Assembly: GCA_964016885.1 (NCBI GenBank)
Contig: OZ024742.1
Coordinates: forward strand, 353,090,001 to 353,154,000
Direction: 5' to 3'
DNA: 64,000 nucleotides
DNA from: Eledone cirrhosa
Taxonomy: Eukaryota
Position numbers and translations under genes: made by a program. The notes under the pieces were generated by a model. The model ran no database searches and had not been told where the DNA came from. It was given only the letters and a program-made list of their open reading frames with translations. This document shows, one piece after another, positions 19,402 to 19,817 of this stretch (positions within the stretch are counted from its first letter, which is position 1; the number at the start of each line of letters is the position of its first letter).

Positions 19402-19817
19402 ATACTTATATTTAGGTATAAGCCGTACTATGAGTGGGAAATTAAAGTTCGTTTCCTTCTTTTCCATTTATCCAATGCGGTGCGCCCGGCCCACTAACTC
19501 AATGGATATGCAAATTAGGCTGCTCAGCCGTTAATATGCATAAGGAAAGTATATACATTCAAATGTTCAATCATCCGACAGAAATGTATACGATGCTGAC
19601 GAGAGCTAATACGCTTGAAACTAGTTGATAGTTCCTGTGTCAGAGTTGAACAAAAGGGTACTGTACGGCGTAATACGGGCTGTTAGTTAACAAACAAACC
19701 GAACATTATAATAAATGTTCGGTAAAACCATACTTACATATATATATGTGTGAATGCATGTATATATATACATACTACTGTGCGTCTGTACACATATTTG
19801 TATGCACATACTTATTT
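19402..19817 (+). mobile_element. Non-coding HHR monomer, family K (~415 nt)
   Basis: Begins atacttatattt and ends atacttattt. Homologous to, and circularly permuted relative to, 62851-63222. Confidence 0.75.
19590..19632 (+). ncRNA. Hammerhead ribozyme (family K, stem I decayed)
   Basis: CTGACGA-gagc taatac gctt-GAAA-CTAG-TT. Confidence 0.7.

Follow-up and report, generated by a model that had tools for sequence, protein, structure and literature searches.

Among described systems, those closest to the family reported here include the non-LTR retrozymes of animals and the Penelope-like elements (PLEs). Units of the former are given as about 170-400 nt by Cervera & de la Pena (2020, PMC7229834) and as 51-972 bp by Li, Clavereau & Pollet (2026, 10.64898/2026.07.22.740005); the latter authors, whose preprint counts many dispersed monomers and relates retrozymes to pLTRs, make the case for non-LTR retrozymes as non-autonomous PLE derivatives. 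That PLE machinery inserts retrozymes is, in both sources, a hypothesis drawn from the shared ribozyme type, co-occurrence and pLTR phylogeny. PLE insertions, for their part, are published with an inverted 5' copy and, optionally, with a tail at the 3' side that continues into the beginning of the same element (PMC3846280, PMC8557442); the tail is put at 30-40 bp, the inverted copy is 5'-truncated, and partial tandems occur as well (PMC8557442). In the rotifer element Pen2a the tail extends the ORF start from 12 to 22 codons (PMC3846280). Nearly all Hydra families insert in (TA)n, and Hydra elements are also reported with canonical hammerheads (PMC8557442). The canonical metazoan type I geometry consists of helices of 6, 4 and 1-2 bp with a palindromic loop 3, and the weakness of helix III is reported to promote activity as a dimer (PMC4209133). 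For HHR_Amex2, a retrozyme of the axolotl with a U.U at the base of helix II, cleavage of the monomer reached 22% in an hour and that of the dimer was much better (PMC7229834).

The family described here, which we call K, lies in a stretch of 64,000 nucleotides from Eledone cirrhosa (the window), which holds two copies of a non-coding unit of about 410 nt, both within TA microsatellites. Like animal non-LTR retrozymes as presented in PMC7229834 and 10.64898/2026.07.22.740005, K is non-coding, is near the described sizes, has a GC content of 34-37% and carries one canonical type I hammerhead per unit, and it shares with them a head-to-tail joint, dispersed monomers and co-occurring PLEs. Judged on its letters, K is retrozyme-like in size, non-coding nature and hammerhead type. 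It differs from these retrozymes in that both copies of the window are monomers with one hammerhead; an inverted 5' arm and (TA)n targeting further separate it from retrozymes as those two sources describe them. Insertion in (TA)n, 5' truncation and the inverted 5' copy are what K shares with the Hydra-clade endonuclease-bearing (EN+) PLEs (Craig et al. 2021, PMC8557442), which it also resembles in having a canonical hammerhead upstream of the TA-joined end, and the optional 3' tail into its own start recalls the pLTR/tail anatomy of PLEs (Arkhipova et al. 2013, PMC3846280). Unlike EN+ PLEs, K is without an RT or endonuclease ORF, and its tail is longer than 30-40 bp (PMC8557442). MRC1 of Chlamydomonas, a non-autonomous PLE derivative, is comparable in being non-coding, in its pLTRs and head-to-tail copies, and in mobilisation by a PLE, which for K is proposed; the 3' end of MRC1-like derivatives is generally similar to that of the autonomous partner, and hammerheads are mostly lacking in their clade, whereas K carries one (PMC8557442). 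From the plant LTR retrozymes, with their type III hammerhead in LTRs, K differs by its type I topology and by the absence of an LTR pair around it.

In the literature searched, most subscription papers lying outside it, we found no retrozyme monomer described as having an inverted arm of the PLE type; supplements of the preprint may list related families. What is modestly new is this PLE-type inverted arm on a retrozyme-like monomer, K being otherwise a new family of a known kind.

The family K unit and its two copies

Copy 1 (19402-19815) is one entire unit, which we divide into segments A-B-C-D (Table 1). An earlier note, made from the letters of the window, had proposed a unit of about 415 nt; copy 1 is indeed one whole unit, of which the measured period is 406 nt, with ATACTTA standing at 19402 and again at 19808 and a terminal overlap of 8 nt. 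The same note took the unit to be non-coding, and we agree: the longest ATG-initiated ORF has 40 aa in copy 1 and 71 aa in copy 2 including its arm, and there is neither an RT nor a GIY-YIG ORF in K. A profile search with nhmmer gave no third copy in the window, and six-frame tblastn, in which nothing other than K itself came below E 0.5, did not connect K at protein level with any ORF of the window. Within the window we found no piece of K flanking any ORF and no sequence similarity of K to the Hydra or Neptune-like elements or to other PLEs, and no link by sequence to a particular PLE clade. Exact-motif scans returned 0 matches in metagenome contigs and 0 in viral contigs. Rfam matches to miRNAs on segment D were dismissed as low-complexity and below gathering.

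Table 1. Positions, in the window, of the parts of the two family K copies and of the coding element used as a control
Feature	Position	Strand	Remarks
Copy 1, short imperfect inverted repeat of the beginning of segment A, at the 5' junction (weakly supported)	19379..19398	-	17/20 identical to 19402-19420; short, AT-rich
Copy 1, segment A, unit start	19402..19471	+	84.3% to 63159-63227; two hairpins predicted by folding
Copy 1, segment B	19472..19522	+	mostly missing from copy 2; no second match in window
Copy 1, segment C: hammerhead and 3' hairpin, ends at ATACTTA (19730)	19523..19737	+	75.7% to 62853-63076, 230 columns
Copy 1, hammerhead, decayed	19590..19632	+	4/6 pairs in stem I; triplet is GUU; site after 19626
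Copy 1, segment D: degenerate TA/TG tract	19738..19815	+	ends at second ATACTTA (19808), with (TA)n beyond it
Copy 2, inverted 5' arm, 112 nt	62730..62841	-	reverse complement of 62962-63073, 5 differences in 112
Copy 2, direct part: last few bases of B and segment C	62845..63076	+	
Copy 2, type I hammerhead	62914..62956	+	core letters all present; predicted cut after A62950
Copy 2, segment D, self-complementary TA-rich tract	63077..63158	+	
Copy 2, segment A: read-through past unit end into unit start ("permutation" or PLE tail)	63159..63222	+	
Coding Hydra-type PLE, not K	48115..52247	-	RT then GIY-YIG-like region; ORFs 51295-49724, 49779-49225

Copy 2 has the order C-D-A (62845-63222) and is without some 45 nt of B, its direct part amounting to about 0.9 unit. 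Segments C and D of copy 1 (19523-19824) align with 62853-63171 in 325 columns at 77.2% (E 9e-71). The match of A, over 70 columns (E 2e-15), scores 83, whereas the best of 2000 mononucleotide shuffles reached 28. The two copies had been described as circular permutations of one unit: the change of order, from A-B-C-D to C-D-A, holds, whereas the permutation is not a full one, most of B (19472-19522) being missing. Copy 2 had likewise been placed at 62851-63222; its true start is 62730, the inverted arm having been overlooked.

At its outer end this arm has ATACTTA, which adjoins about 390 nt of (TA)n. Part of the direct copy is repeated in the arm, and either a second template or a template longer than the unit is therefore required. 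At the other side the tail reaches 64 nt beyond the unit end, and 147 nt beyond the end point of the arm. Three of the four termini of the two copies are at ATACTTA beside TA-rich sequence (19402, 19808, 62734), and each of the four ends borders on a TA-rich tract. K bears insertion marks of PLEs, namely an inverted 5'-truncated copy by the 5' end, a tail into the unit's own start and a (TA)n site; a target-site duplication would be masked by such microsatellite flanks. In this single case the inner end of the arm is 11 nt after the predicted hammerhead cut. We rejected a general rule by which inverted arms would end where the hammerhead cuts, since elsewhere in the window there are arms that contain their hammerhead.

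Compared with shuffled sequences, the circular unit folds with a z of -2.8 (40 shuffles) and 65% of its bases paired, and segment C of copy 2 with a z of -4.3. The energy of the unit is -101.9 in the circular form, which is branched, and -105.7 in the linear one, the circular form being no more stable.

The window is AT-rich (GC 27-45% per 2-kb bin), with many (TA)n tracts and broken PLEs, and at gathering Rfam gives a single match in the whole of it, a tRNA-like one. A tRNA-like sequence (24296-24367; Rfam tRNA 33.9 bits, gathering 29) lies within an imperfect palindrome of 600 nt at 23870-24464. The microsatellite tract at the flank of K copy 1 is shared by an insertion (16309-19147) with inverted arms of 880 nt, 88% identical; in each arm there is a hammerhead-like motif whose stem II is long, the cores being at 16421 on the minus and 19035 on the plus strand. 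More PLE insertions, apparently nested and with inverted arms ending in (TA)n, are seen at 44196-47265, 39671-44190, 35916-39355 and 12357-13876, and a clean hammerhead with an 8-bp stem I at 44302 (minus strand). There is also a second short dispersed repeat family, of about 230 nt and 84-91% identical, with at least six copies in the window (among them 5367-5589, 15559-15747, 29684-29807, 32735-32945 and 62089-62318), one copy standing directly left of the microsatellite that flanks K copy 2.

Other copies of the family in sequencing runs

Four of the 23 runs listed as matching 62730-64000, among which none is on record as RNA, were compared with 19396-19822 at 80% likeness. Two of them, X1 and X2, are contigs from two runs of one sample, possibly the source of the window; X11, the one run used of 17 with small shares, is of unknown kind; and X21 consists of raw reduced-representation DNA reads of 150 nt from another study, which shares only the species label. 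They yielded 8416 (X1), 8509 (X2), 409 (X11) and 32206 (X21) records, some of which are microsatellite matches to D. With thousands of records in these runs, K is a large family. Along the unit the summed contig depth varies between about 4,000 and 2,000,000; we did not read it as a copy number or as a ratio of segments, copy 1 being divergent in places and D attracting microsatellite records.

The joint from the end of the unit to its start (19804->19401/19402) is seen, among the joints listed, in 283 raw reads of X21 (276 from 20 starts, seven from three starts), in one X2 contig (19804->19401), and in X1 in the forms 19791->19402 and 19802->19405; X11 has no end-to-start joint among the joints listed. 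The continuity of A with B, for its part, is present in other records of the family as well as in copy 1: among the loose ends listed, 36 X1 contigs at 19478 and one X11 contig at 19495 read, upstream of B, as the end of A, and in X1, X2 and X11 the letters of joints and of loose ends upstream of B read as A among the rows listed. Since the end-to-start joint recurs and A is continuous with B, the unit closes on itself. No ORF is seen between A and B in the records listed. One contig matches 19396-19532 of copy 1 with one difference and extends beyond its left end. No record spans two hammerheads, the reads being of 150 nt and no listed contig piece spanning the unit.

Most records that pass 19804 nevertheless do not continue into a recognisable A. 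Among the loose ends listed, 3159 X21 reads, 80 X1 contigs and 72 X2 contigs are loose behind 19804 and read on through ATACTTA, so that 283 of 3442 X21 reads (about 8%, among the rows listed and in reduced-representation reads of another sample) cross into recognisable A. Those that do not could be a mixed microsatellite flank, as in copy 1, or a subfamily with another continuation. The commonest continuation after D in X21 leaves segment A right after ATACTTA, and may be mixed flank or a second unit start. Pile-ups of X21 at 19513 and 19756 were not taken as element ends, as we infer library cut sites there. Some relatives of K skip about 160 nt including the hammerhead (joints 19534->19691 and 19538->19704), and 20-24 contigs have a different sequence upstream of the 3' hairpin block (loose ends before 19689); these are possibly ribozyme-less derivatives or a sister subfamily.

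The hammerhead motif

A hammerhead at 62914-62956, with cleavage predicted after 62950, had been recognised in copy 2 from the start, and as a motif it is confirmed by letters and pairing. All six pairs of stem I are present (62914-19/62951-56), with CUGAUGA at 62920, GAAA and a GUA triplet; stem II is of 4 bp and stem III of 1-2 bp around a palindrome. The statement that its core is fully canonical is true of the single-stranded core letters and does not extend to the pairing, the 10.1-11.1 pair at the base of stem II being a U.U in place of G-C and stem III being so short. The best ribozyme match of Rfam to copy 2 is HH9 (22.7 bits, E 0.00068), below the gathering score of 52, and on copy 1, whose hammerhead is decayed (Table 1), there is no match at E<=1. 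In both copies the hammerhead is internal, and neither direct end is at the predicted cut site.

The decay of copy 1 is not typical of the family. X21 reads laid on copy 1 mostly have the letters of copy 2, in 5239 of 5739 at 19603, 5129 of 5405 at 19612, 3543 of 4281 at 19626, 4021 of 4289 at 19627 and 3901 of 4289 at 19630; at 19626 the contig runs disagree, the letter A making up only 1925 of 12251 depth units in X1. On these letters, the family-typical hammerhead is the intact form of copy 2 and not that of copy 1.

In its type I fold and its small helix III, a palindrome that would suit activity as a dimer, the motif is like the hammerheads of PLEs (Cervera & de la Pena 2014, PMC4209133). 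It is unlike the minimal PLE hammerheads in having a helix I of 6 bp and a helix II of 4 bp, against a helix II of 7-8 bp, and in the U.U that replaces the G10.1-C11.1 pair (PMC4209133); this U.U at the base of helix II is shared with HHR_Amex2 of the axolotl (PMC7229834). Minimum-energy folding gave the active hammerhead fold for neither copy, which says little on activity, being expected with such a short stem III.

A coding PLE of the window and the origin of the copies

K co-occurs with Hydra-type PLE ORFs and GIY-YIG matches, the PLE copies seen in the window being broken. An RT-then-GIY-YIG-like reading is found in the ORFs 51295-49225 and 42635-40953. Pfam recognised GIY-YIG in two of the 13 ORF pieces scanned (34036-34401, 37392-37877) and RT in none of the 13, and the Hydra label is therefore given by comparison with the motifs that define the clade in PMC8557442: RWR, DKT and CxCX5C are all present in the ORFs of the element at 48115-52247, our control. 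This element is nearly whole, with a frameshift between the RT and endonuclease ORFs and a 134-nt tandem repeat (48302-48574) in its 3' region; short relatives of it lie at 20094-20657, 29341-29661 and 30260-30514, and its hammerhead core fits the motif at 30449 (minus strand), whereas the copies at 48 kb and 52 kb read CAGAAGA.

The 3' end of the control lies in (TA)n and an inverted arm on its 5' side. This arm extends about 95 nt past the 3' end point, into sequence upstream of the element's own ORF, its last 46 nt (52202-52247 against 51370-51325) being identical at 44 of 46 positions, and a tail of this length is longer than the published 30-40 bp. The short copy at 20375-20534 has the same joint and continues through the ATG (109/119). 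As a coding PLE in the window and records of genomic DNA both show such joints, the end-to-start joint is not diagnostic of a circle. The earlier note had expected permuted ends from reverse transcription of a circular or multimeric RNA; the longer-than-unit template it called for stands, the joint being recurrent, whereas a circle in particular is not supported, the coding PLE having both arm and joint. The permutation is thus a known PLE pattern, likely an ordinary footprint of PLE copying, and by itself it shows no circular RNA.

We are inclined, with moderate confidence, to regard K as a multi-copy non-coding type I hammerhead unit in (TA)n that is likely a non-autonomous, retrozyme-like passenger of PLEs, copied from an RNA longer than the unit. 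That the template was longer than one linear unit follows from the unit end joining its own start. RNA reading through more than one unit would come from head-to-tail source loci; the endonuclease of a PLE, for which the Hydra clade is the most likely source, would nick a (TA)n tract, and the PLE RT would prime at one of the two ATACTTA/TA-like tracts of the K RNA. Most insertions would then stop at the unit end, as in copy 1, a minority keeping a tail into the start of the next unit, as in copy 2, and a second priming event would produce the inverted arm. The hammerhead would trim the multimeric RNA, probably best as a dimer via its palindromic stem III, and the inner end of the arm, in this one case, would fit an RNA with a ribozyme-made 5' end. 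Circles may exist but are unnecessary for copies 1 and 2. Less in keeping with a PLE passenger of this kind are that no record spans two hammerheads, that the tail of copy 2 exceeds the published length, though that of the coding control does so too, and that the length of copy 1 is very nearly that of a unit with 8 nt added, as one turn on a circle would give.

This last point leads to the reading of K as a true circular-RNA retrozyme, which we think doubtful. Monomers cut by the hammerhead would be ligated into circles of about 410 nt and copied directly by a PLE RT, copy 1 being one turn and copy 2 a turn begun elsewhere. Besides the length of copy 1, the closure of the unit on itself, the internal position of the hammerhead away from both direct ends, a unit that folds better than shuffles and the intact hammerhead typical of the family all speak for it, as do the circles formed by similar-sized non-LTR retrozymes in coral, mussel and axolotl (PMC7229834) and the circular template proposed in 2014 for more-than-unit PLE copies (PMC4209133). 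Yet the joint is also found in genomic DNA and in the coding PLE, the ends cluster at ATACTTA with only a small share of X21 reads crossing into A among the rows listed, the circular fold is branched and no better than the linear one, and the inner end of the arm, one case only, fits a linear cut template at least as well. To go further and call K an active circular-RNA retrozyme whose copies are direct footprints of a Hydra-clade PLE RT, copy 1 being exactly one turn and copy 2 a twin-primed product with an arm stopping 11 nt from the cut, seems to us equally doubtful.

In our opinion K is unlikely to derive from a coding PLE located elsewhere, be it as its pLTR stump or as a by-product that was gutted internally, with A as the 5' start of the parent, B-C-D as its 3' end and the permutation as its tail. 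The coding PLEs of the window do leave such short copies (20094-20657). Against this, B follows A directly in copy 1, and among the rows listed X1, X2 and X11 show the letters of A before B, at joints as well as at loose ends; no K piece flanks any ORF of the window; and the hammerhead has the canonical 6/4-bp geometry of retrozymes and not the long helix II of the minimal PLE type, although Hydra elements are reported with canonical ones too (PMC8557442). The alternative foreseen in the earlier note, a co-linear longer coding element with ordinary pLTR redundancy, is thus borne out by half: the permutation does resemble pLTR/tail redundancy, whereas a longer coding parent of K was not found in the window or among the records listed. 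Finally, that the change of order is due to chance similarity of AT-rich sequence, to faulty assembly or to a single local rearrangement, which the AT-rich region and the long microsatellites flanking both copies might bring to mind, is very improbable, given that the A match (E 2e-15) lies above all 2000 shuffles, that contigs and raw reads from 20 starts show the joint again, and that a contig passes the left end of copy 1 with one difference over 19396-19532.

Whether K is, as we favour, a PLE passenger copied from longer-than-unit RNA or a retrozyme in the strict sense, it offers a convenient test case, with PLE insertion marks on a retrozyme-like unit beside coding PLEs that bear the same marks. 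If the circle were true, K would provide structural evidence for the so far hypothetical insertion of retrozymes by PLEs, in a genome with enough copies to map the process.
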